Positions 40,768-62,095 of a stretch of DNA of 64,000 nucleotides are shown here, piece after piece. Both the position numbers and the translations under genes were made by a program. The DNA lies in NCBI GenBank assembly GCA_003152315.1, contig PLZV01000057.1, forward strand, positions 200,065 to 264,064, read 5' to 3'. This DNA is from Verrucomicrobiota bacterium. Its GTDB lineage: Bacteria; Verrucomicrobiota; Verrucomicrobiia; Palsa-1439. The notes beneath the pieces were generated by a model. The model was not told the DNA's origin. It did no database searches and saw only the letters and a program-made list of their open reading frames with translations. Positions within the stretch are counted from its first letter, which is position 1. Each line of letters begins with the position of its first letter.

Positions 40768-41613
40768 TTAGGCTTTGCGACGGCGCACGGCCAGCGCGCC
40801 CAGCAAACCGGTGATGACGAGCACGATGGTGGAAGGCTCGGGCACCGCGATCGTATATTGATCAAGGACGGTTGCGTTGTATTGGGCTGTGGAACTGTAG
40901 GTTCCTTGAATGTTCCCTTGAACCACCAGTGAGTCATAGGCGGTCTGATTGCCGCTGGTGCCCGTGCTGCAAATGTCGAAATCAAAAGTTGTTCCGGCAG
41001 TGAGAGCAAAACCTGCGGCGAAGTCACTCAGCGGGACGGTTAAGTTGATGGAATTCGAAATGGTGGTCGAGGGCTGCATGCTCAATGGCTGGCCGCTGGC
41101 CACCGTATTGATTTTCGACCAGGTCAAACTAACGCCGTTCGTATTCCAAGCGTAATCGTTAAACCCGTAGCTGGTGTAGGGACTGGCGCCAGATCCGGAG
41201 CCACCGGCCCCGAATATTCCTACGAAATCCTGCATTCCGCCGAAAGAACTGTCGAAGGATATGGAACGGCCATACGCATTGCCGTGGGTCGTGGCATTGG
41301 CGGAGGTGTCGCCACCGGCGGAAGGATTGCCGGATGTGATGCCGATAATGTAATTAAATGCGCCGCCGGTTGAAAGGTTGGCTCCCGGATTCATGTTGAG
41401 TGTGATATAGAGATTGTTCGCGTCATTGGAGATGGTTGCGGACGAGATATCGCGCAGGAGGCTGGCGCTGCCCTGCCCGTCGCCCAGCACGTCGGTGTAA
41501 GTTGTGCCAGAGCCACCCGACTGATTGATAGTGCCCGCCGACGCCGAAAAAACGGCAAAACCCATCACGCCCAAGCCGACTGTGAATGCTTTAAATAGTT
41601 TCCCGATCTTCAT
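40768..41613 (-). CDS. PEP-CTERM sorting-domain secreted protein
   Basis: ATG at 41611-41613 with a GGGAG RBS and a signal peptide. Gly/Ser/Thr-rich body. The C-terminal VPEPSTIVLVITGLLGALAVRRRKA is a PEP-CTERM signal. Confidence 0.65.
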   Translation of the reverse strand: MKIGKLFKAFTVGLGVMGFAVFSASAGTINQSGGSGTTYTDVLGDGQGSASLLRDISSATISNDANNLYITLNMNPGANLSTGGAFNYIIGITSGNPSAGGDTSANATTHGNAYGRSISFDSSFGGMQDFVGIFGAGGSGSGASPYTSYGFNDYAWNTNGVSLTWSKINTVASGQPLSMQPSTTISNSINLTVPLSDFAAGFALTAGTTFDFDICSTGTSGNQTAYDSLVVQGNIQGTYSSTAQYNATVLDQYTIAVPEPSTIVLVITGLLGALAVRRRKA

Positions 41614-41843
41614 AGTTTTATCGCTCCCTAGAGTGTTGCTGAATGCCCAAGTCTCCATCGCATAACAACTGGATTCTTTTCCCAAACTCGCCAAACACCG
41701 AAACCTACCGCTTCTCCACCCCCCACTTATACCGTAGAACGGTTTATCAAGTCAACGCCGCTCTTTATACATTTTCGGCCTTTTCCTATACAACTTCTGT
41801 GGTCTTGTCGCCCTCCCGACCCTTGGATACAGTGTTCCAGCTC

Positions 41844-42863
41844 ATGAAGGTCCGTGGCAAAAACTACCGTGCCGTGTGGATGGAAGGTCGCGACGTCGTC
41901 GTGATCAACCAACCGTTGCTGCCACACCGATTTGGGCTGCTGCGCCTGAAGAACCACCGTGAAACCGCCCATGCCATCAAGACCATGATCATTCGCGGCG
42001 CGGGCACCATCGGCGCTACCGCCGCCTACGGCATGGCCCAGGCCTGGTTGGAAGGTGTGGATCTAAACCGCGCCTATCGTACCATTTTGGAGACCCGCCC
42101 GACAGCGGCGGATTTGAAACACGCGCTGGACCGCGTCCGCGCCCGGGCCAGCTCCGCGAAAGAAGCCGTCGCCGAGGCGGAAGCTATCGCCGACGAATAT
42201 GTCGCCCGCGCCAAACGGATCGCCGAAGTTGGCTTGCCGCTCATCAAAAGCGGCTCGCGCATCCTTACCCACTGCAACGCCGGCTGGCTCGCCTTGGTGG
42301 ACTGGGGTAGCGCGCCCGCTCCGATCTATCTCGCGCATCGCCGCGGTCGAAAGGTGTTCGTCTGGGTGGACGAGACCCGCCCGCGGAATCAGGGCGCGAA
42401 CCTCACGAGTTGGGAATTCCTGCAGGAGGGCGTCCCGCACAAGATCATCGCCGACAATGCCGGCGGGTTTTACATGCAACGCGGCGAAGTGGATCTGTGC
42501 ATTGTCGGCGCGGACCGCATCGCGGCCAACGGCGACGTCGCCAACAAAATCGGCACGTACCAGAAAGCCGTTCTCGCCTGCGAGAACGGCATTCCCTTCT
42601 ACGTGGCCGCGCCGAGTTCGACGATCGACTGGAAGTGCCCGAGCGGGGCCGGCATTCCGATTGAGGAACGGGACGAGGACGAAGTGCATTACATATCTGG
42701 AAAGACGACCGGTGCCAGGCTGGAGCGCATCCGCATCTCGCCGGCAAAATCCCGCGCCGGCAACCCCGCCTTCGATGTGACCCCCGCGAAATACATCACC
42801 GGAATCATCACGGAGCAGGGGATCATGAAGCCGGGCGAACTACGCAAGCGGTTTCGGAAATAA
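41844..42863 (+). CDS. mtnA: S-methyl-5-thioribose-1-phosphate isomerase (eIF-2B alpha/beta/delta-like family)
   Basis: ATG at 41844. MtnA-typical GAGTIGATAAYG and the CNAG..ALVDWGSA segment are present. Confidence 0.8.
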   Translation: MKVRGKNYRAVWMEGRDVVVINQPLLPHRFGLLRLKNHRETAHAIKTMIIRGAGTIGATAAYGMAQAWLEGVDLNRAYRTILETRPTAADLKHALDRVRARASSAKEAVAEAEAIADEYVARAKRIAEVGLPLIKSGSRILTHCNAGWLALVDWGSAPAPIYLAHRRGRKVFVWVDETRPRNQGANLTSWEFLQEGVPHKIIADNAGGFYMQRGEVDLCIVGADRIAANGDVANKIGTYQKAVLACENGIPFYVAAPSSTIDWKCPSGAGIPIEERDEDEVHYISGKTTGARLERIRISPAKSRAGNPAFDVTPAKYITGIITEQGIMKPGELRKRFRK

Positions 42864-42870
42864 CACAGCC

Positions 42871-43434
42871 ATGGGTGAGGTCTATACAGGAACGAAGTTT
42901 CGCACCGTCTTCGCGCGGCGCGCGGTCTCGGGCGATGAGCGGTTGGGCGAGTTGCTGAAGTGGTGCCGCCGCTGGGCCGCACTGGGCTTGGTGGGCGACA
43001 CGGTCGGCAACCTCAGCTTCCGCACGGTCAACGGTTTCATCATCAACCGCACCGCGGGCGATCTGGGCGGGATCACGCGCCAGGAATTTGTCGAGGTGCT
43101 CGAAGCCGACCGCGACGCGCGCCAGTTGACGGTGGCGGGCCTGTACGAACCTTCCAGCGAGAGCCTGATGCACGCGGGGATCTACGCGGCGCGGCCCGAG
43201 GTGGACGCAGTGTTTCACGGTCACAGTGAGAAGCTGCTCGCGGCGGCGGAGCGGTTGGGTCTGCCAGTTACGGCGCGCGAACAACCCTACGGCACGACCG
43301 AGTTGGTCGCCGAGATTTTGCAGGTGCTGGACGGCCATAAACTCGTCATCATGCGCCAGCACGGATTCGTTTCACTCGGCGGGACGATGGCAGAGGCGGG
43401 ACGCAATGCGGAGGAAATCTTGCAGCGGTTATGA
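42871..43434 (+). CDS. mtnB: Class II aldolase/adducin-family protein, probable methylthioribulose-1-phosphate dehydratase
   Basis: The HxH metal-site block (VFHGHSEK) is present and the gene is adjacent to mtnA. Confidence 0.6.
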   Translation: MGEVYTGTKFRTVFARRAVSGDERLGELLKWCRRWAALGLVGDTVGNLSFRTVNGFIINRTAGDLGGITRQEFVEVLEADRDARQLTVAGLYEPSSESLMHAGIYAARPEVDAVFHGHSEKLLAAAERLGLPVTAREQPYGTTELVAEILQVLDGHKLVIMRQHGFVSLGGTMAEAGRNAEEILQRL

Positions 43435-44042
43435 ACGGGATCGATGCGATCATTTTTGATTTGGGCAACGTGTTGCTGGCGTTCGACGAATCGCGCGCCG
43501 TGGAACGCCTCGCCGCGCGCACGGGCAAGACGCGGCAGCAGATTGAGGAGTACGCGCGTGGCACGCCGCACGTGACCGAATTGGCGCTCGGCAAAGTGAC
43601 GAAGCTGCGGTTCTTCCGCACCGTCGCCAAAGATCTGGCCTTCGACGGCACGTACCAGGAGTTCGCGTTGCTTTGGTCCGACATCTTTACGCCCATCGAA
43701 CCGATGATCGCGCTGGCCGAATCGCTCAAGAACCGCCTGCCGCGCCTGCTCCTCTCGAACACCAACGCCATCCACATGGACTACGTCTTCGAGCACTACC
43801 CGTTTCTGCAGGACTTCGACGCGCATGTGCTCTCGCACGAAGTCGGTCTGCTGAAACCCGACCCCGCGATCTTCCAACACGCGCTGCGCACGTCCGGCCT
43901 GGCCGCCGCCCGCACCGTTTTTCTCGACGACATCGCCGCCAACGCCGAGGCCGCCCGCCACGCCGGGATGCAGGCCATCCATTATAAAAGCCCCGATCAG
44001 GCGCGCGCAGAGTTGACGAAACTCGGTGTGTCGCCTATATAA
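43431..44042 (+). CDS. HAD-IA family hydrolase
   Basis: Motif I IIFDLGNVL, motif II SNTN, motif III/IV FLDDIAAN. It is not the DIEGTT-type enolase-phosphatase. Confidence 0.7.
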   Translation: MNGIDAIIFDLGNVLLAFDESRAVERLAARTGKTRQQIEEYARGTPHVTELALGKVTKLRFFRTVAKDLAFDGTYQEFALLWSDIFTPIEPMIALAESLKNRLPRLLLSNTNAIHMDYVFEHYPFLQDFDAHVLSHEVGLLKPDPAIFQHALRTSGLAAARTVFLDDIAANAEAARHAGMQAIHYKSPDQARAELTKLGVSPI

Positions 44043-44062: not shown

Positions 44063-44137
44063 TCCGCAGTAGCTCAATGGTGGAGCAGCGCACTGTTAAT
44101 GCGCGGGTTGTAGGTTCGAGTCCTACCTGCGGAGCCA
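44063..44137 (+). tRNA. tRNA-Asn (anticodon GTT)
   Basis: Acceptor TCCGCAG/CTGCGGA, D stem GCTC/GAGC, anticodon stem GCGCA/TGCGC with loop CTGTTAA, T arm GTAGG-TTCGAGT-CCTAC. Discriminator G and CCA. Confidence 0.9.
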
Positions 44138-44331: not shown

Positions 44332-45402
44332 ATGAAATATCGTTACTGGAAATTCAACCGGAAAGGCACCTGGTACGTCGAAGACGCCGTCACCGGTAAA
44401 CAGGAGAGCCTGCGCACCTCGGACGAGAAGGAAGCGGAGCAACTGCGACACGCCAAGAACGAGGCCACGCGTGACCGCGCGCTTAGCCTGGCGTTGGGGC
44501 GCGCGTATCTCGGCGCGCACGATCCGAAAATGGCGAAGCGTACCTGGGCGGACGTCATGGCGGAGATGTCCAATCACGGGGAGCAAACCACACAGGACCG
44601 CTGTCGGCGTGCCATGCGCAGCAAACCGTTCGACCGGATCCGCCACCAGCAGTTGGTCGAGGCGACCGCCAAGGATCTCTTGGACGTGCTTCGATCGGGA
44701 ACGTCCTCGACGAACCACTTCCTGCGGCGATTGCACAATCTGGCCATCGACCTGGGCTGGCTGCCATGGGTGGTGCTTGCGCCCAAACTGTGGCCCAAGA
44801 TTGAAGCGAAACCCAAGCGAAGTATTACGCATGACGAGCACGTACGCATCGTTTCCGACGACGAGAATCTGGAACGAAGCCTGTATTACGAGGTGCTGTG
44901 GGAGATCGGTGCCTCGCAAAGTGACGGCGCCAAGCTGACGGCGGAAAACGTTGACTGGTGCACCGGCCGGATGGCGTACATCAGGAGCAAGACGAAAACG
45001 AATTGCACGCTGGAAATCGGGCAACGACTTAAAGCCATTCTGAAACAGTTGCCGCCATACGGACTGCTGTTTCCCAATATCGCTCGGGTACCGGCCAAGG
45101 ACCGTGCGGGCGAATTTCGTCGTCGCTGCCGGCGTCTGGGGATCAAGGGCGTGACGCTTCATTCCTACCGGTATGCGTGGGCAGAGCGGGCCGAGACATG
45201 TGGCTACCCGGAGAGGTATTCGCAACAGGCCCTCGGCCATGCCAGCAAGGCTGTCCACCGAGCCTATGGCAGACACGCTCAAGTGACCCTTCCCTCCCTG
45301 GAGGAGTACGAGCAGGCATGCACGGAGCGGAAGATTATTCCGATCAGACGCCAAAACGGTGACGCTGTCGGGATGTCACGCGTAAATGTCAGGCGGCGGT
45401 GA
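44332..45402 (+). CDS. int: Tyrosine-type site-specific recombinase/integrase
   Basis: ATG at 44332. The C-terminal catalytic region has R...HxxR...Y spacing (LHSYRYAWAERA...LGHASKAVHRAY). It is located next to the tRNA. Confidence 0.8.
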   Translation: MKYRYWKFNRKGTWYVEDAVTGKQESLRTSDEKEAEQLRHAKNEATRDRALSLALGRAYLGAHDPKMAKRTWADVMAEMSNHGEQTTQDRCRRAMRSKPFDRIRHQQLVEATAKDLLDVLRSGTSSTNHFLRRLHNLAIDLGWLPWVVLAPKLWPKIEAKPKRSITHDEHVRIVSDDENLERSLYYEVLWEIGASQSDGAKLTAENVDWCTGRMAYIRSKTKTNCTLEIGQRLKAILKQLPPYGLLFPNIARVPAKDRAGEFRRRCRRLGIKGVTLHSYRYAWAERAETCGYPERYSQQALGHASKAVHRAYGRHAQVTLPSLEEYEQACTERKIIPIRRQNGDAVGMSRVNVRRR

Positions 45403-45733
45403 GCGCCATTTTCGCGCACGGCTTTTCGTTCTTGGATTTCCAGTGCTTCGACACGGCCTTGGTGGCCTTGCTCAACCAGACGGTATCCTTCGTAAGCCCC
45501 TCGACATAGACAGCTGAGAAGTATTTGGGGGCATTGGGCGCGGGGGAGCCAAGCGGCTTGAGAAGGCCTGCCCTAATCAGGATAGGAATATCATGGCTTT
45601 CAAACCCCAGCACCCACCCCGCCTCTTCTGAGGTGAGCCGCGCGGGCCAGTGAGCCAGCTTCAATATATCCTCGCGTGTCGCCAAATCCGCCTCGCATCT
45701 ATACCCGTAGGTCGTTTGCCTGCGGTCGCGCAA
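45389..45733 (-). CDS. Hypothetical protein
   Basis: ORF only. It overlaps the integrase 3' end by 14 bp. Confidence 0.3.
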   Translation of the reverse strand: MRDRRQTTYGYRCEADLATREDILKLAHWPARLTSEEAGWVLGFESHDIPILIRAGLLKPLGSPAPNAPKYFSAVYVEGLTKDTVWLSKATKAVSKHWKSKNEKPCAKMALTAA

Positions 45734-46017: not shown

Positions 46018-49000
46018 TCAGGCCGCGGTTTGCCGAATTTTGAAGATTAGTTTCCAGAACTCGACAGCGACCTGCAACGGTAGGCGGTACGCCAATGTGG
46101 TAAACCCCGGCTGTAGATTATTTGCTACGGCAGGCCACTCGACTATACCTTCAAAGAGAAAATCTGCCATTTCGCGGGCCGCTGTCGCTGGGTCGTGGAA
46201 TCTAAGCGCAAGTAGTTCGGCACATTCAATGAATGTCGCCATATGGTTGGGTTTTGTTTGCATTTCTTTTTCTGACAAAGCAATGCGATGAAACAATTTC
46301 TGTACCTCTGCCTTCACCCGCTTTGCTGCCTCCCGATCATCTAAGCGGTTAACTTGGTTTATAATCGTAAAGAGCGCCACCCTCAAACTGCTTGGCTCCA
46401 ACGCCTCTAGGTCGACAAAATTGATGCTCATTATAAAGGTTCGTACTTTATCTCGTAGTGAATCTGGTGCTTTCGTTCGGCCAAGTGTGCCAAAGGCGAT
46501 GACCCATTTGCTTGGCTGATCTGGTTTTCCAAGCAAGTCCGACAATACTGCCTCTGCGTTTGTCAGAATTTGATTTGAACCAAGCAACTTCGCTGGCTCC
46601 GGACCGATTAACGAGGCCAGCGTTTCGCCTTGGTCGCCCCCAAGAAAAGACCCGAGGGCGTTTTCCTGCAGGGCAGGGTCAGCTAGGAATTCGATCCGCT
46701 GTACCCACTTGTCTTCAACTTTGAAAAAGCACAACCCTACTGCTTTCTCTTCCAGTCCGGGGAAGTCAGTGGAGCGGATTCGGGCTTGGGTGAGCGCCGC
46801 AGCAATGCCGCGCGATAAAAATGTCGAACGATTTATTTGGCGCGGATGGGCAACGTCACCGCGCAACTCGTCTCGTGACCCAAATAACTCGTTGGGCACG
46901 GGTTGTGCGGCTTTCTCGAAGAACTCCGCTACTTTCTCCTTAGAACTGCGTTTCCGTAGCAACGTATATAAACGAGTGGCATGAAGCCAACTTGCCGAGA
47001 GAATCGCGAACGAAGACCAATTCTTCGTATCATGGCGGTGTTCTAAATGTAAAACGGTCCAACGCAGAATCTTATCGAGGGCAGAATAATCTATTTCACC
47101 TTCCGGTCCCAAAAGAGAATCGAGAAGTCGCTGAGCGATGGGTCTGCGTTCCGAGCCACCGCTCAAGGCAATACCAAGCAAGTGTAACCGTGACACGGGA
47201 GAAACTGAATGGCTTAATGCATCCTCTAGCCAGGCCGATTGCTCAGTGAGCGACAGTTTTGCGTGCGCCTCCCATATGGCGCCTGGAACAGCTATTGGTA
47301 GTGAAGCGACCCGCAAAAAGGCTTCGGCGAACCCTTCTTCATCTACGAGAGATTTTGCTGCGGCTTCAAACGCTGTCGCGGATTGGCCGGGCTTTGTCTC
47401 TTGGGGCAGACGGAGATGATTCAATAAACCCTGGGATGGGGGCGGCTCAAAATCTGAGAGGTGCAATGATTTCCGCTCGGCCAACTGGGCTTCGAGGTTG
47501 GCATAGAAGGAAGCCGCAGAATTGTTCCTCCAGTGGCGTATTCGTGTGATTCGTTCGGATGGATCGCCCAGTCGCGCCAGACGCTGCACTTGTCTCTCGT
47601 GAGTCTGGGCGTTGCAATCAAACCATTCGCGGTGTGTTATAAGAACTTTTTCCCGTGTCAAAACATCGGGCCTCAAAACCTCAAACAGTGGGTCAGACAT
47701 CCTAAATGTTTTTTCTGGCGTGCCAGTGCTTAATCGTAGCGTTTCACCATCTGCGTCGGAAATGAAGCGCATGGTGAATTCTTGCAGTGGATCGCGTGCC
47801 GTTATTCTTTCTACGCTTCCCTGCACCGCTTTCTTTGCGGCTTGCCAAAACTCCTTATCTTCAAATTTAAAATTGGCAACGACTACAACACGATGCTCTT
47901 TTATCCCGATCCTCTTCAGTGCCCTGGACGAAATGCTCATGTGACTTCGGATTGTTTCTGGCAAGTTGGCATACAGGTCCGACAAGAGAACCTGCAGAAC
48001 TTTGTCCCGTTTCTTTGACTTCGACTTAGCGGGAGACATGGCCTCAAAAAGCCTGCTGAGCTGCCTCCCAAGGGTCTTGTTGGATTCCCAATCTGTTGAG
48101 AAGCGGTTCTGTAACCAATCAAAATAGCCTGCGCGCAGCATCGGACCCTTTTCGTCTGTGCTGCTTAGTCTTGTCGGAGCCTGAATGTACAAGAGTGCAA
48201 TGGTCCCCCCCATTAACTCACGTTCCTGGGCACTATGAGGAGCAAGACCGATTAATCGAGGGGTTGCGCCGCAATCATACCAGAGATTATAAAGTATCCA
48301 ATCCGCGCGCGCTATAGCTGCGCCATCGGTAATCTTCTCATCACACCAGAGGGAGCGAATCGCTTCCCCAGCGGCAGCAAAGAGACCAGTCAAAACATTT
48401 ATCTCACCCGGTTGGCTCCCTTTTCCCATCTGCGCCGGCATACGCAGAGAGTCTCTGTCCTGTAAACACGACGCTACGTAACGCCGTAATACCGACAATT
48501 CTGGAGTTTCGATGATTTTGCCGTCCCTTTCAGTTGCATTATGGAGATCAAAAAGAATCTCCTCTTTCTCGAGGGGGACGTATCTGAAGTTCCCTTTACG
48601 AAGCTGATGTAGTTTCCGGAAGTAACTAGTTTGGTCGAGAACTTTCCGCCTGCGCAATTCATTCAGTATTTCAAGTAGGCCGACCACCGGCAGTTCACCA
48701 CACTTGGAAAACGCATTTATAAACCGGTCGTCAATCCAGACATAGCTTCCTGATGCGCTTTTGGCGTGCAACAATTCTTCCAAACAGGCAGCGTCGGGAC
48801 CCCACGTTTGAGTTGCGCGATCCGGTTTCAAGCTATTACTGACCCCGATAAACTTGTATCTGTCAGCGGCTAAACCGAGGTTTATTCGGTCACGCAATTG
48901 GCGCAGCCATTCTTGAAGATTTCTCTGTTCTTCCACGCGTTTGAGCCCGGCTCTGATATTCGCCGCTTCCCTCGGTTCGATATACACTTGGAAATTCTTG

Positions 49001-50763
49001 CAAGTCTCCCGTAGAATGTCCGCACTTGCGAGCGTTTCGGCAATATTTCCATAAAGAAACAGCGCCGTGCCCGTCGTTAGCATTGAAGGATGTTCCCTGC
49101 TGGCGATCACGGATAGGTGTTGCTGCGCCACCTGTTGCACTTCTTGAGTCAGCTTTCCCTCAGCGGTGAGAGATGTGAGTATGCTGCCACAGCCGGTTAC
49201 AAACTGACTCTCTTCTTCACCGAGTTGAATGATTTCCAGTTCGACACCGCGCTGAAGCGGAAGATAATCAACCAACCTGCCGCCCGCTTGTTTAGCTTGC
49301 TGAAATAAATCAAGCCACTCTATCCCTACTTTGGTTAGCAGCGGATTGTCACGGCTGGCGGATGTATTAACTGGATTTGCAATCCTCAATTCTCCGGACT
49401 CCAGCAGAGCCTGAACCTTTCGCATCGCGTCGATAATACTCGGTTGGTGAGGCACAGCGTCTTCAATTTGTCGATGCAATGCGTGTGTGATGCTCGGCGG
49501 CAAATACAATGGGGCAAATTCTTTTTCGACGATGTCAAGTATGTCCAATTCTGCTGCCAAAAGAACAGAGCTTATGTCTAAGTAAAGGCGGCTCGGAGAA
49601 AGGGTGCCCGAGGTGGCGCCACGCCCGCCGTATCTAATAAAAACTGGCGATGACTGCCCCAACATTTCGTCGCTGCTGTGGAAACGTTCGTGGTAAATCG
49701 CTCCGAGCGCTTTGTTTACGATATGGAGTGGAACACGACCCTGCCGGTATAGTTGGTTCACTTCCGTTAGCCGCGCTCGTTCCGTTTCTCCCTGTTTCAA
49801 CAAATCGGCTAGAGTGACGGTCCAAATGGGGCCATCTTTTCGTTCCGCTGCCTTCGTAAAATCCGGATGAAGCGTTTCAAGCATGTCTTCCCGGTTCAAA
49901 CGAAACGCTAGATCGTAGGCAGTAACTACAAACTCGGCCGAACGCTCGCCACTCTTAACGGCTTTGGAAAGTAGTTCCTGCGCCAGCGGTGAATCCTCTA
50001 CGTAGGTCGCACGAGCCAGTTGTAGAAGCTGCTTTGGGTCGGCATCCTTCCGTGAAAGAATAGCTCGCGCTCCTTCTATCACTCCCTTCGTATCACCGGC
50101 AGCCAGTCTTAGACCAACTAGTTGGTTCAAGTCCTCCAGTAAACCGGTCTCCCGTGCCACCTGCTCAGCCTCGCGGAGCGCTTCGTTAATTAAGCCGAGT
50201 TGTTTTTCGCATTCCACTCGCCAACGCTTTAGATCAATCGGTAATTCCCCATTCGGAAAGAGACGCTCATTGGTGTTGAGCAAGTTCAAGCACTGTTCGT
50301 GTCTCGCGGCGTTGAACACGCCCATGAGCGCAATCCTTAATGCAGCGGGCGTACCTACCAGAGTGAGTAGGTCGTCAGCATGATCGGCAACAAATATCCA
50401 CTCCTTCTGTTGTAGTTTCACTTCACACAACTCGAATAGGTGCAACCCATCCTTTGTTCTGGTGTACAAATCCTCAAGATACGCACCGAGACGGCTTGGG
50501 TCCTTTGTTTGCTTGGCGATTTCTCGTAGAGCGACCGTTTCTAGGGCTATTCGATGTTCTGGGTCATTGATATTCGCAGCGAGAGAGAGGGCCGCTTCCG
50601 GATCACCGCCGGCAATCACGGCTTGTCCTTTCCAAAACAACCAGACACTTTCTTCGCCATCATCCACAAACTTCTGGCGTGACTCATCGACGACTTTCCC
50701 GAGTTGCGCCGCATCGCCTTTGCTGAGTAGCAACGTGAACAGACCGGCCAGCTGAGCTTTCAT
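46018..50763 (-). CDS. Giant (1581 aa) uncharacterized protein; no P-loop, protease or nuclease motif recognisable by eye
   Basis: Single uninterrupted ORF. A 4-bp ATGA overlap with the upstream PNP-TPR gene suggests translational coupling. Its composition looks AT-richer than the core. Confidence 0.7.
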   Translation of the reverse strand: MKAQLAGLFTLLLSKGDAAQLGKVVDESRQKFVDDGEESVWLFWKGQAVIAGGDPEAALSLAANINDPEHRIALETVALREIAKQTKDPSRLGAYLEDLYTRTKDGLHLFELCEVKLQQKEWIFVADHADDLLTLVGTPAALRIALMGVFNAARHEQCLNLLNTNERLFPNGELPIDLKRWRVECEKQLGLINEALREAEQVARETGLLEDLNQLVGLRLAAGDTKGVIEGARAILSRKDADPKQLLQLARATYVEDSPLAQELLSKAVKSGERSAEFVVTAYDLAFRLNREDMLETLHPDFTKAAERKDGPIWTVTLADLLKQGETERARLTEVNQLYRQGRVPLHIVNKALGAIYHERFHSSDEMLGQSSPVFIRYGGRGATSGTLSPSRLYLDISSVLLAAELDILDIVEKEFAPLYLPPSITHALHRQIEDAVPHQPSIIDAMRKVQALLESGELRIANPVNTSASRDNPLLTKVGIEWLDLFQQAKQAGGRLVDYLPLQRGVELEIIQLGEEESQFVTGCGSILTSLTAEGKLTQEVQQVAQQHLSVIASREHPSMLTTGTALFLYGNIAETLASADILRETCKNFQVYIEPREAANIRAGLKRVEEQRNLQEWLRQLRDRINLGLAADRYKFIGVSNSLKPDRATQTWGPDAACLEELLHAKSASGSYVWIDDRFINAFSKCGELPVVGLLEILNELRRRKVLDQTSYFRKLHQLRKGNFRYVPLEKEEILFDLHNATERDGKIIETPELSVLRRYVASCLQDRDSLRMPAQMGKGSQPGEINVLTGLFAAAGEAIRSLWCDEKITDGAAIARADWILYNLWYDCGATPRLIGLAPHSAQERELMGGTIALLYIQAPTRLSSTDEKGPMLRAGYFDWLQNRFSTDWESNKTLGRQLSRLFEAMSPAKSKSKKRDKVLQVLLSDLYANLPETIRSHMSISSRALKRIGIKEHRVVVVANFKFEDKEFWQAAKKAVQGSVERITARDPLQEFTMRFISDADGETLRLSTGTPEKTFRMSDPLFEVLRPDVLTREKVLITHREWFDCNAQTHERQVQRLARLGDPSERITRIRHWRNNSAASFYANLEAQLAERKSLHLSDFEPPPSQGLLNHLRLPQETKPGQSATAFEAAAKSLVDEEGFAEAFLRVASLPIAVPGAIWEAHAKLSLTEQSAWLEDALSHSVSPVSRLHLLGIALSGGSERRPIAQRLLDSLLGPEGEIDYSALDKILRWTVLHLEHRHDTKNWSSFAILSASWLHATRLYTLLRKRSSKEKVAEFFEKAAQPVPNELFGSRDELRGDVAHPRQINRSTFLSRGIAAALTQARIRSTDFPGLEEKAVGLCFFKVEDKWVQRIEFLADPALQENALGSFLGGDQGETLASLIGPEPAKLLGSNQILTNAEAVLSDLLGKPDQPSKWVIAFGTLGRTKAPDSLRDKVRTFIMSINFVDLEALEPSSLRVALFTIINQVNRLDDREAAKRVKAEVQKLFHRIALSEKEMQTKPNHMATFIECAELLALRFHDPATAAREMADFLFEGIVEWPAVANNLQPGFTTLAYRLPLQVAVEFWKLIFKIRQTAA

Positions 50764-52700
50764 TGTGACACCTCCAATTCAACTGCAACTTCGCGAATAT
50801 TCTCCTCTAGGTTGCTGATGTAATCTCTGGCTGAAGCCCAAAGAATGGCAATCGGATGAGTGGGGTCTCTCTCCAATAACTCGGCGCAGTACTTTTGCGC
50901 CTCTGCATGTTTTTCAGCATCATTGGCAAGACATGCAAGTCGCCATCCCTCAATTTCTCGTCGCGCTATCGGCTCCATACCATTCGGATTCAATAACTCG
51001 GCGAAAAGTGCTTCGGATTTCCTTAGCTGTTTTAGAGTGTCCTTGTCTCGCTTTACTAATTTGAGATCGGCCGGAACTGGCCAAAATTTTGGAATACGTT
51101 TGAATAAAGCCGGGGACAGACTATCAAAGTAACCGATGATCGCTGACGCGAACCTCACGCTAAACCATTGGGGGTGCTCAGTAACGGCCAACTGAATCTC
51201 TCGCTGAGCGTCTGTCAGCCTTCCCTCTCCTAATAATGCGAGTGCATACAAACGTCTAGATTCCGTATCCGGCGTAATACCAATGGGCGGTTTTGGATAT
51301 TCATCGAGTACATCCCGTGATTTTCCAGAGTCCAATAAAAAGGCGAGCTTAACATTCCAAGCGTCCAGGCTTTTGACTTCCTGAAGGTTTGCCAGAGCGG
51401 TGCGTGCGCCTTTTTCGTGATAGGTGATTAGCGCTTGCAACACCGGCATGCCTCTGTCTCCGTCTTGTTTCTGAGCCTCAAGGGCCAAGGTTTTGGCAAT
51501 GTTTACATCGCTATCTAGAGCGAGAACTAAACTTGCTTCCAATCGAAGCGCTATCGCGCGAGTGGTGGGAGTCAAGATCTTCCAATCTTGGCCTTCCTTC
51601 AATGCCTTTAGTTTTTCCATGGCTTCGCGTCCACCGCTGACTCGCCACCCCTCACGAATTGACTCGATGTCACGGACACGGGCGGCGCTCAATGCTTGTG
51701 CTAGCTTTTCAAATTGGTCGTTGATGAATTCGGAAGCAAGCGGCGAGAGTAAACGTTTTTTTCCGTCCTCATCTTCCTGCGGCGAAATGGTGGCGGCTGA
51801 AATACTGCTTTGAGTTATTGAGTTTGGACGAAGGAGGTCTATATCACACCCGTCATAAAGAAAAAGGTCCAGATATACGGCAGCAGCGCAAGAGGCTAAA
51901 TCGTGAAACCTGTCCCCCTTGAATTCGTCGGCGAAGTCCGAAATGCCTCGTATCACCATCCATGGTTTGGGTGGGTCCCGATCCTCACACGCCCTAGAAA
52001 AGCCGCCCGCTTCCATTTCTGCGGCCCGGATGCCTTGGTGATACTTGCTCATCTTATCAAAAGCCGAACCGTCTCGAAGTAAGTCATCGGCAGAAGCTAT
52101 TGTGCAATCGCGAATGGTAGGAATTGTTGCCACGTTGTCGCGGTATACATCTTCCTCACCTTTAGGCAGTTCTATTGCTTTCCCAAATTGATTTGTGAAT
52201 TGAACTGCAAAGCTCTGACCGTCGAGACGAAAATTCTGAATCATCTGCGTGACGGGGGGACGGAGGGCTCTATTAACGGGACGAGGATGTCTCTCGCCAT
52301 TTTCGACAACATTTATGCTCAAGTCCGCGATATCGCGAGCCACCGCCACGTCACCAATTTTTAACTTTCCTCGCCAACCCGCTGCAATGCCTAAGAGAAT
52401 TAGGATGGCAGGGTCATAATATGTGAGTAGGCGCGTTGTCGCTGCGCTGGCGCTGGCTTGCGAGGCGCTCCCAATGCAGTGAACCACAATTGTTAGATCG
52501 CGATCTTGAAGCTTTGAGTAGCGGGTGGTTTCCCAGTACAGGAAACCGTCTTTAGGAATTCGATCTCGTGATTCGATCTTTAGTACGCGCTGAACTGCGT
52601 GCAGTTCCGTCCCGATGACGGTCAAGACAGCCACGTCGATTGTTTTAACTTCGTGCACGGGTCGTGTAACGCGCTCCTCCAAACCCATAAAATACAGCAT
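50760..52700 (-). CDS. PNP/MTAN-like nucleoside phosphorylase/nucleosidase domain fused to C-terminal TPR-like helical domain
   Basis: The N-terminal ~270 aa align by eye with E. coli MTA/SAH nucleosidase (Pfs) motifs. VAVLTVIGTELHAV matches IGIIGAMEEE. CIGSASQASASAATTRLL matches SGIGKVAAALGATLLL. ILILLGIAAG...KIGDVAVARD matches VIINTGSAGGL..KVGDIVVSDE. AAEMEAGGFSRAC matches AVEMEATAIAHVC. MVIRGISDFAD matches VVVRAISDVAD. The C-terminal ~370 aa are helical-repeat-like. Confidence 0.7.
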   Translation of the reverse strand: MLYFMGLEERVTRPVHEVKTIDVAVLTVIGTELHAVQRVLKIESRDRIPKDGFLYWETTRYSKLQDRDLTIVVHCIGSASQASASAATTRLLTYYDPAILILLGIAAGWRGKLKIGDVAVARDIADLSINVVENGERHPRPVNRALRPPVTQMIQNFRLDGQSFAVQFTNQFGKAIELPKGEEDVYRDNVATIPTIRDCTIASADDLLRDGSAFDKMSKYHQGIRAAEMEAGGFSRACEDRDPPKPWMVIRGISDFADEFKGDRFHDLASCAAAVYLDLFLYDGCDIDLLRPNSITQSSISAATISPQEDEDGKKRLLSPLASEFINDQFEKLAQALSAARVRDIESIREGWRVSGGREAMEKLKALKEGQDWKILTPTTRAIALRLEASLVLALDSDVNIAKTLALEAQKQDGDRGMPVLQALITYHEKGARTALANLQEVKSLDAWNVKLAFLLDSGKSRDVLDEYPKPPIGITPDTESRRLYALALLGEGRLTDAQREIQLAVTEHPQWFSVRFASAIIGYFDSLSPALFKRIPKFWPVPADLKLVKRDKDTLKQLRKSEALFAELLNPNGMEPIARREIEGWRLACLANDAEKHAEAQKYCAELLERDPTHPIAILWASARDYISNLEENIREVAVELEVSQ

Positions 52701-52720
52701 GAAACGGAGTAGTTCCAGCG

Positions 52721-53101
52721 CTACTGGTCTCGCAGCCAGACAAGAATCTCGCTCGCCGATTTAGGAAACAACACACGTACCGCTAGGGCAATTTCATCTC
52801 TATCAGAGGGGTGGCGGCGCCACCGGAGTCTTAGCTCCAGCATCCACTCGTAAAAGGGTTCCCGCTCTCTATCCCTGAGATCAATCTCCTTCTTCTGCTG
52901 TCTCAACCCGACTCGGATCTCTGCCTCTTCGAGACGGTATAGTACCTTGCCGCTCAACGCACGTTTCCCGGTCTTCACATAGTGAAGCATTACTTTACTC
53001 ACGCCGAGTTCCTGCGAAACCCGCTCCCACGTCCATCCCTGTTTGAGGCGAAGGCGCTGGATTCGTGGGAAAATTAACTTTAATTCACTTTTCACTTGCA
53101 A
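52721..53101 (-). CDS. XRE-type helix-turn-helix transcriptional regulator
   Basis: HTH block LRLKQGWTWERVSQELGVSKVMLHYVKTGKRALS. The start is TTG at 53099-53101 or GTG two codons in. It is the first gene of the minus-strand operon. Confidence 0.55.
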   Translation of the reverse strand: MQVKSELKLIFPRIQRLRLKQGWTWERVSQELGVSKVMLHYVKTGKRALSGKVLYRLEEAEIRVGLRQQKKEIDLRDREREPFYEWMLELRLRWRRHPSDRDEIALAVRVLFPKSASEILVWLRDQ

Positions 53102-53113
53102 TATAGTTAATCT

Positions 53114-53365
53114 ATGTTAACTTCTCCTATGTTAGCAGAGCGACATATGCAACACCAGTCGAAACGAAGTGACCGCGAGTACTTGACCTCCACGGAGGTC
53201 GCTGACCTGTTGAGGGTGTCCTTGCGGACAGTAGTCAATCTGCGTCGTCGCCGTGTCATTCCGCACCTCAAGATTGGCAGGTTGGTGCGCTTCTCCCGTG
53301 AGCAAGTGGAGTTAGCGCTGAGATCATACACGGTCACCCAAGTGCAGACTCATGTAGGCGAATAA
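53114..53365 (+). CDS. xis: Excisionase / AlpA-MerR-like HTH DNA-binding protein (start ambiguous: 53114, 53129 or 53147)
   Basis: The block YLTSTEVADLLRVSLRTVVNLRRRRVIPHLKIGRLVRF is typical of excisionase-family HTH. It lies immediately upstream of the integrase. Confidence 0.55.
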   Translation: MLTSPMLAERHMQHQSKRSDREYLTSTEVADLLRVSLRTVVNLRRRRVIPHLKIGRLVRFSREQVELALRSYTVTQVQTHVGE

Positions 53366-53378
53366 AGTCTTGGAACGA

Positions 53379-54572
53379 ATGACAACCAGCGTGGCAATCA
53401 AAGTCAATCGGCGAGGCAAGGTTTGGCCGCTGATTTACCGGCGCCGGTATCCCTCTGGCTTGGCGTCCTTCGTTGTTGATGCGGGGAAGCAGTCAGATGG
53501 AAGACGGATTCGTCGGACGTTCCCAACGCGAGGGGAGGCGGAGACTTTTGCCGAGCAGAGGCGGACCGAGAGGGCGAACGAGGGTACCATGACGAACGCT
53601 GTTCCGTGGGAGATTCGCCGGGAGGCAGCCATCTGCGCGGCCAAACTCTCGCCGTATCGTGCGAAACTTACTGAGGCAGTCGATTACTATGTTCAACAAG
53701 TGCTGCAGTACCGGACTTCACCCAGCGTGTCAGACGTGATCAAGCGAATGCTCGATGAACTGAAGGCCGGAGGACGGCGCGAAACAGCCATCCGCACGTT
53801 GCGCTGTTTCCTCGGTGGAGCCTTTACCCTCCAGTTTGGTGAGCGACAGTTGTCGACGGTTGCCCTGGACGAACTCAACGTCATCTGTTTGGTGCCCGAT
53901 CTGCAACCCCGCACCCGTCTGAATCGCATTCGGATGGTTTCGCAACTTTACAACTACGCGGTCAAGCACGGCTGGGTCAGTGGCAATCTGGCCGAACGCA
54001 TCGTCAGGCCTATTCTGGAGAAGAAGGAACCGGGTTATCTCGATGTAGATGCTGCGCGACGCTTCCTCGAACACGCGGATGAATTTGGTTTGTTGCCCTA
54101 CGCGGCCATCGGTCTGTTCGCGGGTGTTCGCAGCGCTGAATTGCTCCGCCTGGACTGGTCGGCAGTCAATCTTATCGACCGGGAGATCACCATCGGATCG
54201 GAGATCGCCAAGACGCGATCGCGCCGCGTCATCCCGTATGGTGACGACCTCGCGGCTTGGCTCAAGCGATGTGCGCGCTGCAGCGGACCGGTGGTGAATC
54301 CCAATAATTTTGAAGGCAACTTTGGCAGGCTCAAACGCGCGGCCGGAATCAAAAATTGGCCACAGAACGCGCTCCGCCACAGCTTTGCGAGCTATCATGT
54401 CGCCCAGTATCGGGATCCGGTACGGACGGCCTATCTGCTGGGGCATCGGGGTGGCACCGATATGCTCGACAGCCATTACCGCGGACTCGTTAGCAGCGCC
54501 AAGGCAAAGGAATTCTGGGCGCTGCGTCCCAGTGGCCAGATGGTGCAGGCCGCGCTAAGGGACGCGGCGTAG
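53379..54572 (+). CDS. int: Tyrosine-type site-specific recombinase/integrase (second copy)
   Basis: ATG at 53379. The catalytic region carries RSAELLRLDW...HSFASYHVAQ...GHRGGTDMLDSHYRG. Confidence 0.8.
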   Translation: MTTSVAIKVNRRGKVWPLIYRRRYPSGLASFVVDAGKQSDGRRIRRTFPTRGEAETFAEQRRTERANEGTMTNAVPWEIRREAAICAAKLSPYRAKLTEAVDYYVQQVLQYRTSPSVSDVIKRMLDELKAGGRRETAIRTLRCFLGGAFTLQFGERQLSTVALDELNVICLVPDLQPRTRLNRIRMVSQLYNYAVKHGWVSGNLAERIVRPILEKKEPGYLDVDAARRFLEHADEFGLLPYAAIGLFAGVRSAELLRLDWSAVNLIDREITIGSEIAKTRSRRVIPYGDDLAAWLKRCARCSGPVVNPNNFEGNFGRLKRAAGIKNWPQNALRHSFASYHVAQYRDPVRTAYLLGHRGGTDMLDSHYRGLVSSAKAKEFWALRPSGQMVQAALRDAA

Positions 54573-54584
54573 GGAGATATTCTC

Positions 54585-56828
54585 ATGGCGAACCTTGACG
54601 AAAAACTTGATCGGGAGACGATCCGTGTGGCAGCGCTGACTAGGCGCATGTGCGTAGAAGTGGGCTGCGGCCGACTTTGTCCAGAAGCGTATGCGGTCGG
54701 GATTCTCTCGTTTGGTCCAAATGCCGCCACCCAAGCGGCAGTCGAGATCGGCGGGAACCTTAACGTGCTAACCGACCGCTGTCGGAAAGTATTGGAATCC
54801 CGTATGAGTATTCATGAGAATCCGGCGGGCGGCTATTTTCAAGTCAGTCTCGATGATTCGTGCGGTGCTATGTGGCGTACGGCGGCGCAGTATCGGACGA
54901 CAGCGCGAGCACCACGTATCGGAGCGTTCCATGTTCTGCTCGCCATCCTTAAAACAACCCCGGCCGTCGCCTCGGTCTTCGAAGGCGTTGGGATCGGGTT
55001 GCCGGCTTTGGAAGCGAAGCTGCGCATCCGCCCCCGACAGGAAAGTCCGCGCGCACCCGCGGCCGGGTTGCCGGCCAGTATTGGTAACCGGCCCGACGAA
55101 CTACCGGTGCGGACTGATAACCCGTTGGCAGCATTCTGCATTGACCTCACGGCTATGGCCGCCGCCGGCCAACTCGACCCGGTAGTTGGTCGTGGGCGCG
55201 AGATCGACCGTATCATCACCACGCTGTGTCGGAAGAAAAAGAACAACCCGTTATTGGTGGGCGCGGAGGGGACAGGTAAGACGGCCATAGTCGAGGCCCT
55301 CGCTCAACGTCTCATCCTCGGCCACGTACCGCATCAAATTGACGGACGACGAATCTACTCGGTAGACATGGCGCGGCTCGTTGCCGGCACACTATATCGT
55401 GGCCAGTTTGAGGAGCGTCTCAAGGCGTTGCTGGATGCCGCTCGACAGAACCGCAACTGCATTTTGTTCGTCGACGAGGCGCACACGATTATTGGTGCCG
55501 GCAGTGCCGTCGGGACTCTCGACGCCAGTAACATCCTGAAACCGGCGCTGGCCCGCGGAGAGATCACCTGTATTGCTGCCACGACCGAGACCGAGTACCG
55601 GAAGTACTTCCGCAAAGACAAGGCGCTCGATCGTCGGTTCCAGCGCATTGCAGTCAACGAGCCAACGACGGAGGAAACAGTTGCCGTGTTGAAAGGACTG
55701 CGCGTCTCACTGCAGCGGTACCACCACTGCACGATCACCGATGAAGCGCTCACGGCGGCAGTCGAGTTGTCCGGGCGCCACATCACCGACCGTTCTTTCC
55801 CCGATAAAGCGATCGACGTCATCGATGAAATGGGAGCCCGGTTCGGCGCGACCGGACTACCATTGGGCCGGGAGCAAGTGGCCCGCACGGTCGCCGACCA
55901 ACTCGGGGTTCCGTTGGAGACGGTCTTGCCAAACGATTCTCACCGCGGGCATCTCGTCGAAACCGAACTAAGGCGATTGGTGGCCGGGCAGGGGAGTGCG
56001 ATCGAAGCCGTAGTGCAGGCGGTGCGTCGCGCGTTCTTGCCCTTGCGCGATCCGCTCCGTCCGCTGGCGAGCCTGGTCTTTGGCGGGCCGTCCAGTGTCG
56101 GCAAGTCCTACATCTCGCAGATTGTCAGTCGGCACCTCTATGCTTCGGCACCCCTCATCCGCATCAATTTGGCGGAGTACGCCGAGAAACACAATGTCAG
56201 TCGGCTGTTTGGTTCACCGCCGGGCTATATTGGGCACGGCGACAGCAATCAACTCACCGACCGGGTCATGCGCCATCCGCACAGTGTGGTGCTGTTCGAC
56301 AATCTCGACAAGGCGCACCCCGAAGTGTTGATGGCGATCATGGAATTGCTCGACGCCGGCATACTCACGGACGGGCAGGGGAATGAGGTAAGTTTTCGGA
56401 GCGCGTTCATCATCCTGACGACGGTCGCTGGCAGCACTGGGTCGGTGAAGGAGGCAGTTGGGTTCGGGACGGCGAAGTCTGACCGTAACCGTCGCCATCT
56501 CATAGAAGCCTGCCGGAACCTTTTTGGCGACGAGTTTGTCAATCGAATCGACGACTTTATCCCGTTCACTCCACTGGGGCCGTACGAACTGGCGGGAGTT
56601 GCCCGCTTGACGTTCGAGGAGGTTTCCCGGCGGTTGGCCGGGAATGGCGTGACGTTGCGATGTGATGACGAGGTGTTCCAGCAGCTTGGACGCGAGAACG
56701 GCCATGCGCGCGCTGTGCGCGCGGCTATCAGGAACGAGATAGAACCGCTCATCTGCGATATTCTCGCCTGCGTACACACGCTAGGCGTCCACGTTCGATG
56801 GAAGGACGGTCGCTATGTCGTCGAGTGA
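54585..56828 (+). CDS. ClpA/ClpC-like double-AAA+ ATPase with Clp_N repeat domain; D2 Walker B Glu replaced (DNLD instead of DEIE)
   Basis: N-terminal Clp_N-like repeats. D1 has Walker A GAEGTGKT and Walker B ILFVDEAH. D2 has P-loop GGPSSVGKS and Walker B VVLFDNLDKAH. There is no ClpB-type middle domain. Confidence 0.8.
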   Translation: MANLDEKLDRETIRVAALTRRMCVEVGCGRLCPEAYAVGILSFGPNAATQAAVEIGGNLNVLTDRCRKVLESRMSIHENPAGGYFQVSLDDSCGAMWRTAAQYRTTARAPRIGAFHVLLAILKTTPAVASVFEGVGIGLPALEAKLRIRPRQESPRAPAAGLPASIGNRPDELPVRTDNPLAAFCIDLTAMAAAGQLDPVVGRGREIDRIITTLCRKKKNNPLLVGAEGTGKTAIVEALAQRLILGHVPHQIDGRRIYSVDMARLVAGTLYRGQFEERLKALLDAARQNRNCILFVDEAHTIIGAGSAVGTLDASNILKPALARGEITCIAATTETEYRKYFRKDKALDRRFQRIAVNEPTTEETVAVLKGLRVSLQRYHHCTITDEALTAAVELSGRHITDRSFPDKAIDVIDEMGARFGATGLPLGREQVARTVADQLGVPLETVLPNDSHRGHLVETELRRLVAGQGSAIEAVVQAVRRAFLPLRDPLRPLASLVFGGPSSVGKSYISQIVSRHLYASAPLIRINLAEYAEKHNVSRLFGSPPGYIGHGDSNQLTDRVMRHPHSVVLFDNLDKAHPEVLMAIMELLDAGILTDGQGNEVSFRSAFIILTTVAGSTGSVKEAVGFGTAKSDRNRRHLIEACRNLFGDEFVNRIDDFIPFTPLGPYELAGVARLTFEEVSRRLAGNGVTLRCDDEVFQQLGRENGHARAVRAAIRNEIEPLICDILACVHTLGVHVRWKDGRYVVE

Positions 56829-57237
56829 AGTCAGCAATCATCGCTGCCAGACCGTCGGGTTCCCCAGCGCGTTGTTGGTGCGGGTGGTGAAGGCCAACGC
56901 GACGATCACGTACGAAGGGATAAGTCCCGACGGTGATCTCACGTTCACAGTACCTATGCGGGACTTCGGGCTGAGTCGCACCGTGATGGCGCGTACCCCG
57001 ACCGCGCAAACGAGCTTCTTCGTGAACCTGGTGGGCGAGCTGTTGGTGCGCAAGAACATCGCGGTGTTTGCCGAGGTGCTAGAGAAGCTGGATCCGAAAG
57101 ACTACGACCGGATGGTCAATTGTTTCCGGCACCGGCACTTTGGGATGACGGTGGAGACGAATGATCTGCTCCGCTTCCGGTTCCACAGCTCGCTGGTGCA
57201 GCACATCCTGACCGAAGATCTGGAAGGTGTCGTATGA
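56815..57237 (+). CDS. Hypothetical 140-aa protein, translationally coupled to the ClpA-like gene
   Basis: 14-bp overlap with the upstream gene. The stop overlaps the next ATG (ATGA). Confidence 0.45.
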   Translation: MSSSEVSNHRCQTVGFPSALLVRVVKANATITYEGISPDGDLTFTVPMRDFGLSRTVMARTPTAQTSFFVNLVGELLVRKNIAVFAEVLEKLDPKDYDRMVNCFRHRHFGMTVETNDLLRFRFHSSLVQHILTEDLEGVV

Positions 57238-57386
57238 GCGTCGATCAGTTCCGGCATGAATACTTCCCAATCCCGCACCTGCACCAAGCCTTCGCTCTCC
57301 TGTCGTCCCGGTTTCTGGCTGCCCGGAAGAATCACATCGACAACAGCAACGGGGAGCTTGCTGGTTTCCTGCAGGATGCGCGATGA
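57234..57386 (+). CDS. Putative 50-aa micro-ORF bridging the 140-aa gene and the beta-CASP nuclease gene
   Basis: Its ATG overlaps the previous TGA (gtATGAgc) and its TGA overlaps the next ATG (cgATGAgc). It is absent from the ORF track because it is under 60 aa. It encodes MSVDQFRHEYFPIPHLHQAFALLSSRFLAARKNHIDNSNGELAGFLQDAR. Confidence 0.3.
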   Translation: MSVDQFRHEYFPIPHLHQAFALLSSRFLAARKNHIDNSNGELAGFLQDAR

Positions 57387-62045: not shown

Positions 62046-62095
62046 CATAGATAATGCTATGTATTGTACGTGATATACGCGAAATAAGTAACAAT

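Follow-up and report, generated by a model that had tools for sequence, protein, structure and literature searches.

The stretch of DNA considered here (64,000 nucleotides of contig PLZV01000057.1 from a Verrucomicrobiota bacterium, called the window below) raises the question of what is encoded by three genes on its minus strand, between positions 46018 and 53101, one of which makes a protein of 1581 amino acids (aa). From upstream to downstream, they are an Xre-type helix–turn–helix (HTH) gene (52721..53101, 126 aa; HTH_3, E 1.2e-7), a gene for a 646-aa protein with a purine nucleoside phosphorylase (PNP)-type domain and a tetratricopeptide repeat (TPR)-like region (gene 1, 50760..52700), and the gene of the giant protein (gene 2, 46018..50763). 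A first-pass annotation of the window had described them as co-directional and tightly packed with an ATGA overlap, which the reading-frame coordinates and the sequence confirm. The two genes share ATGA (50760-50763), in which the start codon of gene 2 overlaps the TGA of gene 1; together with GGAGG (50771-50775), 8 nt ahead of the ATG, this makes up a translational-coupling junction (50760..50775).

The reading favored here, as reasonably probable, is that genes 1 and 2 encode the two subunits of a protein that has been split by gene fission and belongs to a large family of conflict proteins with exchangeable effectors, acting by a proposed mechanism of transcription surveillance and ATP depletion. 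The architecture is assigned with high confidence: in this family, a variable N-terminal head is followed by a constant region with a TPR-like adaptor, an HTH, a tandem of PIN domains, a permuted GreA/B-C-like β-domain, and a HEAT-like solenoid. Gene 1 carries the effector head and the first part of the constant region, and gene 2 the giant core.

The split pair, its fused relatives and their heads

Residues 293-646 of the gene 1 product align by BLASTP, with E-values down to 2.5e-56, to the N-terminal parts of proteins of 2,000-2,260 aa (P0007-P0015), which are relatives of the giant from the initial set, and the alignment stops about ten residues short of the segment that is homologous to the giant. 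The C-terminal half of gene 1 and the giant are thus contiguous in the fused homologs, which gives for the family the layout head, TPR block, giant region, and for the window a fission in the linker. Judged from these alignments, the two genes are the halves of what is one protein in most relatives. The TPR-like α-helical adaptor of gene 1 (50778..51743, aa about 320-641) gives a weak signal (TPR_14, E 0.0035; TPR_19, E 0.0056), and ANAPC3/TPR models match several fused relatives in whole-protein scans (the TPR signal is weak in any one sequence). The N-terminal region of the giant (49813..50763, aa 1-317), presumed to be helical and TPR-like, continues this adaptor; it aligns over its full length with the segment behind the TPR region in the fused homologs and has weak similarity to helical-repeat chains in the PDB. 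The fusion of nucleosidase and TPR had been read as effector and sensor; the repeats are not its sensor but the beginning of the constant stretch shared by the family, which runs on into the giant.

The giant had also been taken for an orphan that could not be annotated. Single-sequence searches (PDB, PHROGs, NCBIfam, PADLOC) indeed give nothing useful for it, and word-indexed homolog searches, with a profile query included, return merely 17-18 relatives. An exhaustive HMMER search was needed: with a profile of giant aa 301-1450 against 1.84 billion representatives, it recovers 2,674 clusters at E<=1e-3 and 1,620 at E<=1e-30, and every one of the best 150 clusters aligns along most or all of the core. 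The 17 matches of a word-indexed search had been a gross underestimate of a family that comprises thousands of clusters.

About a sixth of the best 150 clusters begin like the window giant, and most have 450-550 extra N-terminal residues. The co-occurrence of the two proteins was checked in other genomes, and the split pair recurs in six further, independent contexts, mostly beside defense genes. The giant is 88% identical to that of the window at one of them (L007) and 30% identical at two others (L004, and L005/L006 from a Verrucomicrobiae metagenome-assembled genome), all three with a 4-nt overlap; the same overlap is found on the contig of P0003 (36%; the upstream gene is truncated at the contig end and its head is not visible), and the genes are separated by gaps of 5 nt in L011 (35%) and 9 nt in L012 (34%). 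The defense genes at related loci include GAPS4, GmrSD/Vsr/Dcm, McrBC, SIR2, and ParE, with a type I restriction–modification (R-M) locus in the window. In a rough neighbor-joining tree, the window falls within a clade of 15 split clusters and one PNP-headed fused form. A single clade for all split forms was considered and rejected: 15 of the 24 (window included) cluster and nine are found elsewhere in the tree, so that fission probably occurred more than once.

Since most relatives are single polypeptides, the window pair could be read as a decayed gene, the frameshifted remnant of a fused PNP-TPR-core gene. This is extremely improbable: the same linker break, mostly with the ATGA overlap and here with GGAGG, is found throughout a 15-cluster split clade that has diverged to about 30% identity, and both frames are intact with their catalytic residues retained.

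Other fission points do occur. In L010 (8001-13960), the upstream protein P0017 (1,344 aa, TPR-HTH-PIN), a distant relative, ends after the PIN domains and is followed by an overlapping gene for a 642-aa protein with Permuted_GreAB-C near its N terminus (E 6.1e-8); this locus adjoins a McrBC system and an IS605/TnpB element. About 20 family members (P0049, P0072, P0111, P0113, P0114, P0134, and others), mostly of roughly 1,775 aa, begin 120-180 residues ahead of the start of the window giant. They lack a head and retain part of the TPR block, a hint that this region has been split at other points as well. Behind the split pair of L012 (6734-10465) lies a 1,243-aa gene in which reverse transcriptase (RVT_1) is faintly matched.

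The head of gene 1 (51858..52655, aa 16-281) is a Cap17-like PNP/nucleosidase domain. Pfam PNP_UDP_1 (PF01048) matches residues 58-263 of the 646-aa protein (E 1.6e-12). The likeness to methylthioadenosine/S-adenosylhomocysteine (MTA/SAH) nucleosidase (MTAN) that the first-pass annotation had pointed out holds, with EMEA (E230) and ISDxAD (S254-D255) aligning to solved MTANs from the PDB. The catalytic equivalents E32, E230, and S254-D255 persist in almost every partner aligned across the domain, as they do in fused relatives with a PNP head (the alignments to PDB MTANs are independent of the E. coli MtnN reference sequence used for motif conservation). The best match of the domain is the PADLOC model PDLC00759, "Effector PN-superfamily" (2.7e-46, profile positions 237-493 of 506). 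The matched span corresponds to the PNP domain of Cap17, residues 239-505 (bioRxiv 10.1101/2023.01.24.525353), an effector of the cyclic-oligonucleotide-based antiphage signaling system (CBASS). PADLOC had been expected to find nothing; this is right for the giant, which has no model in PADLOC 2.0, but not for the PNP domain. The MTAN equivalogs score well below their cut-offs (NF004079, 54 bits vs. 169; TIGR01704, 40 vs. 73.8), and the 646-aa protein is longer than a stand-alone MTAN of about 230 aa. By these profile scores, as the first-pass annotation had proposed, the PNP domain is probably an effector of the immune type; it is not a housekeeping MTAN.

A housekeeping MTA/SAH nucleosidase standing by chance beside a large gene would agree with the alignment to MTANs and with the presence of mtnA, aldolase, and haloacid dehalogenase (HAD) hydrolase genes across a nearby tRNA-Asn. 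It is refuted, and deserves hardly any weight, given equivalog scores so far below cut-off, the fusion to a family-specific TPR-like region of 360 aa, and the low G+C content of the island DNA.

On the other hand, the architecture could be as described with another chemistry in the head, the PNP domain acting on NAD+, nucleosides, or a nucleotide signal, or making a signaling product. The identity to solved MTANs is low, the motifs mapped are only those that contact ribose and base, and stand-alone PNP and SIR2 genes beside the fused relative P0013 hint at a more complex nucleotide chemistry. Such an alternative is nonetheless unlikely in view of the strong match to the Cap17-type effector model. 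PNP domains of the Cap17 clade are ATP/dATP nucleosidases, and every one that has been assayed, eukaryotic domains included, cuts ATP/dATP (Rousset et al., bioRxiv 10.1101/2023.01.24.525353).

The PNP domain is one head among many. Clustering of the N-terminal heads of the 79 fused relatives present among the best 150 clusters gives 46 that are restriction endonuclease (REase)-like (GxD...QCK; one matches Mrr_cat_2) and 11 that are HNH-like, with PNP in four and trypsin-like heads in two. An α/β-hydrolase, a Cap4-like, and a transmembrane (TM)-containing head occur once each, short N/Q/G-rich motifs take the place of the head in about six, and the rest are singletons or pairs with no type given. 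At the locus of P0007 (L008), an N/Q/G-rich motif is common to an upstream 199-aa protein (L008:910-1509) and to the N terminus of the 2,034-aa family member (L008:1519-1750); the two versions, NVVQGNQNRVVQGNNNQAVIGDGN and NNVQGDGNRAIQGDNNQGVLGDNN, align with a local score of 91 (shuffles, 36.9 +/- 6.3). By analogy, this looks like an amyloid-signaling pair of the Bab/Agp type (see below).

The 199-aa protein of L008 has a hydrophobic segment at its end, and short N/G/V-rich N termini are also present in P0054, P0062, P0105, and P0109. In L009 (3717-15916), the PNP-headed fused P0013 is preceded by an overlapping, stand-alone second PNP gene (541 aa) and followed by a 1,294-aa SIR2_2 protein, with a DpnII-MboI restriction gene upstream.

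Domains of the giant protein

Residues 318-381 of the giant (49621..49812) correspond to HTH_upst_double_PIN (PF24407). The match in the window giant (E 7.8e-6, 26.6 bits) is also recorded in precomputed tables, and 16 of 17 relatives scanned singly match the same family (best, 6.4e-23). The first PIN domain, PIN-A (49114..49611, aa about 385-550), follows, with D396 and E413; in nine of those 17 relatives, PIN-TPR-GreABC (PF20698) is matched (best, 3.5e-7). The second, PIN-B (48601..49086, aa about 560-721), is a duplicate of PIN-A in which the first Asp is missing and which contains D678-D679-R680. The duplication is seen when the profile of aa 385-560 is compared by hhalign with the profile of aa 560-830 (92.8% probability, E 3.9e-7, 159 columns), in line with the Pfam name "double PIN". 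The giant had been said to be devoid of any nuclease signature, a statement that the tandem PIN core overturns.

Over 150 diverse clusters, the conservation reaches 99% for D396, 94% for E413, 98% for D678 and D679, and 99% for R680. PIN-A retains the first Asp and the Glu, and PIN-B, without the first Asp, the later Asp pair. These complementary acidic subsets (D396/E413 and D678/D679) suggest that both tandem domains contribute to one composite active site. Behind the PIN domains, a conserved helical region (47932..48600, aa 722-944) contains E735, E752, E787, W822, and W883 (95-99% conserved; in the same 150 clusters, 95%, 97%, and 99% for the three Glu).

A small β-domain comes next (47698..47889, aa 959-1022), which we take as the equivalent of Permuted_GreAB-C (PF24388). 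Its topology, β-β-α-β-β-β-β, is read from an AlphaFold2 model of aa 881-1581 (predicted local distance difference test, 88.3; predicted template modeling score, 0.85), with the strands and the helix at model residues 79-142. When the excerpt equivalent to window aa 945-1035 is taken from 58 randomly picked relatives, PF24388 is found in 26 of them (best, 3.3e-7) and no other Pfam family in more than one. A profile of the β-domain against PDB sequences gives nothing under E 0.4. A direct BLASTP comparison of the C-terminal half of the giant with the Permuted_GreAB-C protein of L010 was also tried and shows no similarity. By analogy with the systems discussed below, the β-domain is a putative RNA-polymerase-binding module.

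The C-terminal ~560 residues (46021..47697, aa 1023-1581) form a HEAT/ARM-like α-solenoid with two invariant tryptophans (W1259 and W1420), a putative ligand- or partner-binding surface. Neither the 646-aa nor the 1581-aa protein has a Walker A motif, a match to a nucleoside triphosphatase (NTPase) family, or a convincing TM segment; for the giant, the first-pass annotation had said the same of Walker A and TM segments.

Known systems and possible function

The closest described systems are those with a constant TPR-GreA/B-C-PIN (TGP) region and about 13 exchangeable effectors at the N terminus, among them PNPase, REase, HNH, and trypsin (Kaur et al., eLife 2021; PMC8195603). In the proposal of these authors, the GreA/B-C domain docks on RNA polymerase, the PIN domain cuts the transcript, and the head is a back-up suicide effector. 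The combination PNPase+TPR+GreAB-C+PIN is catalogued in their source data with 41 entries. In the Bab/Agp system of E. coli ECOR25, a TGP protein senses phage T5 and triggers an Abi (abortive infection) effector, and mutation of the GreA/B-C domain abolishes signaling (bioRxiv 10.1101/2024.11.07.622273).

As in TGP proteins, a variable N-terminal effector head is found here on a fast-evolving constant region with TPR and PIN (PF20698) domains and a putative GreA/B-C-type domain. Both draw on heads of the PNPase, REase, HNH, and trypsin types and on amyloid or adaptor motifs, both include split operons, and some canonical TGP entries have an HTH before the PNPase. The differences are in the order and the length. 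The TGP order is TPR-GreAB-C-PIN, whereas the present family has TPR-HTH-PIN-PIN-GreAB-C(permuted)-solenoid, with the PIN domain duplicated, the PIN pair (aa 385-721) ahead of the GreAB-C-like domain (aa 959-1022), an extra HTH, and an extra HEAT-like C terminus of ~560 aa. The constant region amounts to about 1,900 aa versus about 1,150 aa (1,100-1,200, in a single polypeptide) in TGP, and the window locus, unlike TGP, is a conserved two-gene fission. The locus tag of P0005 (Symploca sp. SIO1A3) and the Verrucomicrobiae tag VL171_09205 are absent from the tables of Kaur et al. The family therefore shares with TGP the swapped heads, the TPR after the head, and the PF20698-type PIN, but neither the domain order nor the length.

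The nearest description of that order is in Pfam. The family matches both PF24407 and PF24388, which are domain models only and for which the window scores are at or below the cut-offs; the architecture had thus already been seen, at the level of domains, by Pfam curators. All of its elements are present: the HTH upstream of the PINs, the tandem PINs, and Permuted_GreAB-C downstream (at the family level, and in the next gene in L010). In the searchable literature library, this double-PIN/permuted-GreAB-C architecture has no paper devoted to it, no name as a system, and no experimental work. We conclude that the architecture is a recognizable relative of TGP, a variant of a predicted system and not categorically new.

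This bears on the original proposal of an undescribed Abi system, with the nucleosidase-TPR protein as effector and sensor, the giant as an unannotatable orphan, and the HTH protein as dedicated regulator. PADLOC has no model for the giant, the database names are all "hypothetical protein", and the double-PIN/permuted-GreAB-C architecture was not found described in the literature library searched. But the giant has recognizable domains and 2,674 related clusters, the TPR belongs to a shared constant region and is no stand-alone sensor, the combination with PNPase had been catalogued already (Kaur et al. 2021; PMC8195603), and the HTH gene is not conserved (see below). The proposal is largely refuted in that form and very unlikely; its core, a predicted conflict-type module with a nucleotide-targeting effector, is supported.

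Membership in other known systems is not indicated. Cap17 (type III CBASS) and DtcC (Detocs) share with gene 1 a PNP-fold effector with a conserved catalytic Asp, used as a killing module at the N terminus of a larger protein of the immune type. Unlike them, the family has no cyclic-nucleotide sensor (profile positions 1-236 are unmatched), cGAS/DncV-like nucleotidyltransferase, receiver domain, or histidine kinase, and control would presumably come from the TPR/PIN/GreAB-C core; there is no cyclase or kinase among the called neighbors. The central P-loop NTPase of Avs or of other NOD-like receptor (NLR)-type STAND proteins was not found in either protein. The PIN domains of SMG6, SMG5, and Nmd4 and of VapC toxins have 7-15% sequence identity to those of the giant, which differ from them in being tandem copies with complementary acidic residues inside a 1,581-aa protein.

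An antiphage role of the module is fairly likely. The specific mechanism is tentative and rather doubtful in its details. By analogy, the PNP-TPR and giant subunits would assemble through their helical-repeat parts, and the core would monitor transcription with its GreAB-C-like domain docked on RNA polymerase. The solenoid or the TPR would bind a phage-derived or phage-altered component, and the PIN pair may cut RNA as a first response. Activation, probably by oligomerization, would then turn on the PNP domain, which would cut the N-glycosidic bond of ATP/dATP, so that the infected cell would be starved of energy and the infection aborted.

Several points weigh against this interpretation. Binding to RNA polymerase is a hypothesis even in canonical TGP. 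At the level of domains, the window giant scores just below the Pfam cut-off for PF24407 (26.6 vs. 27 bits) and matches PF20698 only weakly (aa 394-436, E 0.012). Its own excerpt of aa 945-1035 does not match PF24388, being below significance, and in fold searches solenoid matches prevail, so that no GreA-like structure is recovered. The HTH, PIN, and GreAB-C assignments lean on family-level matches and AlphaFold2 models; with both of these searches negative, GreAB-C is assigned from the family level and the predicted topology and is unproven for the window sequence. The placement of the PNP domain in a defense clade uses a hidden Markov model proxy (the PADLOC model against sub-threshold MTAN scores) and not a tree. 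Two scans of species-representative genomes by a few exact peptide patterns yielded no relatives.

If the function is as outlined, the family would be a second and larger architecture built on the TGP logic, of which Bab/Agp is the sole tested relative, and it would provide a new controller for an ATP-nucleosidase effector. The principle of the family is already anticipated in the literature. The window locus supplies in nature a version made of two subunits, so that effector and sensor can be produced and mutated independently of each other, and what was a "hypothetical giant protein" becomes a domain-resolved entry.

A further reading goes beyond a cosmetic rearrangement of TGP. The double-PIN/permuted-GreAB-C giants, with their 2,674 clusters, could be a distinct class of transcription-surveillance immune sensors, marked by a composite PIN site, a HEAT-like trigger surface, and an effector in trans; we regard this as possible, at a little less than even chances. 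A single nuclease site would be composed jointly by both PINs (D396/E413 from PIN-A, D678/D679 from PIN-B), and a tandem of PINs with complementary catalytic halves recalls the composite PIN sites of eukaryotic mRNA decay. The actual surface for binding the trigger would be the HEAT-like C terminus. The effector-TPR piece could act as a separate subunit, in trans, as at the window locus; alternatively, an amyloid-type motif could replace it and signal to a neighboring gene.

The HTH gene, the island and its other genes

The HTH gene is called by JGI as a 124-aa frame starting at 53095. It lies 20 nt upstream of the PNP-TPR gene in the same direction, so that co-transcription of the two is likely, and is divergent from an HTH_17 gene (53147-53365) and an integrase. 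Divergence from such an HTH_17/integrase pair is the usual position for the repressor of an element. The HTH protein may be part of the excisionase/integrase switch of the island and may regulate the module at this locus. The first-pass annotation had made it a dedicated regulator; it has no counterpart at the other loci examined (L004, L005/6, L007, L011, and L012), even at L007 with its 88%-identical giant, and is no conserved or defining part of the system.

The surroundings are those of an integrated element. The G+C content drops from about 0.59-0.60 on both sides to 0.50-0.51 between 46 and 53 kb. A tRNA-Asn (44063-44137) is followed by a first integrase (about 44332-45402), and a second integrase (about 53589-54572) is preceded by the excisionase-like HTH_17 gene. 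Of the AT-richer island at tRNA-Asn with two integrases that had been described, these elements are all present; its limits are undefined, since the 3′ end of tRNA-Asn was not found a second time (as an attachment repeat) within the window and the far border cannot be placed.

This setting, with the module between two integrase/excisionase pairs beside tRNA-Asn, could suit an addiction or stabilization module of the island, in the manner of toxin–antitoxin (TA) systems, with a PIN and/or PNP toxin that the HTH protein, or an interaction within its own molecule, would inhibit; its task would be to maintain the element and not to ward off phages. Both PIN domains and HTH proteins of the Xre type belong to the classic repertoire of TA systems, and ParE-like and PIN_3 TA genes are found near relatives. 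It is improbable, however, as exchangeable heads on a constant region of ~1,900 aa are the hallmark of immune proteins of the sensor-effector kind and not of TA pairs, the HTH gene is absent at the other loci, and several relatives are not beside integrases. The two-subunit conflict protein remains the preferred reading.

The methionine-salvage genes (window about 41600-44042; mtnA-type isomerase, class II aldolase, and HAD hydrolase) are on the chromosomal side of tRNA-Asn; genes of the MTA pathway thus adjoin, but stand outside, the island that bears the MTAN-like effector. Directly downstream of the giant gene, a small open reading frame on the minus strand (45389-45733, 98-114 aa) overlaps the end of the first integrase, which is on the opposite strand. 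It has no match in Pfam or PADLOC and, from its position, could be excisionase-like.

The neighbors are of the defense type, as the first-pass annotation had recognized: a ClpB-like AAA+/β-CASP operon and a type I R-M locus. The former (54585-59044) contains four genes, for a ClpB-like AAA+ protein of 747 aa (PADLOC PDC-M37B, 2.7e-22; DolB, 9.7e-18), for proteins of 140 and 50 aa, neither with a family match, and for a 553-aa metallo-β-lactamase/β-CASP protein. The whole set matches no named system, and it may be another candidate defense module of the same island. Inside the type I R-M locus (62054-63689), what had been called an Abi-like nucleotidyltransferase is a 215-aa protein with a weak match to the DUF6036 nucleotidyltransferases (E 8.8e-4), followed by an overlapping 337-aa protein without match; the two are possibly an MNT/HEPN-like pair.

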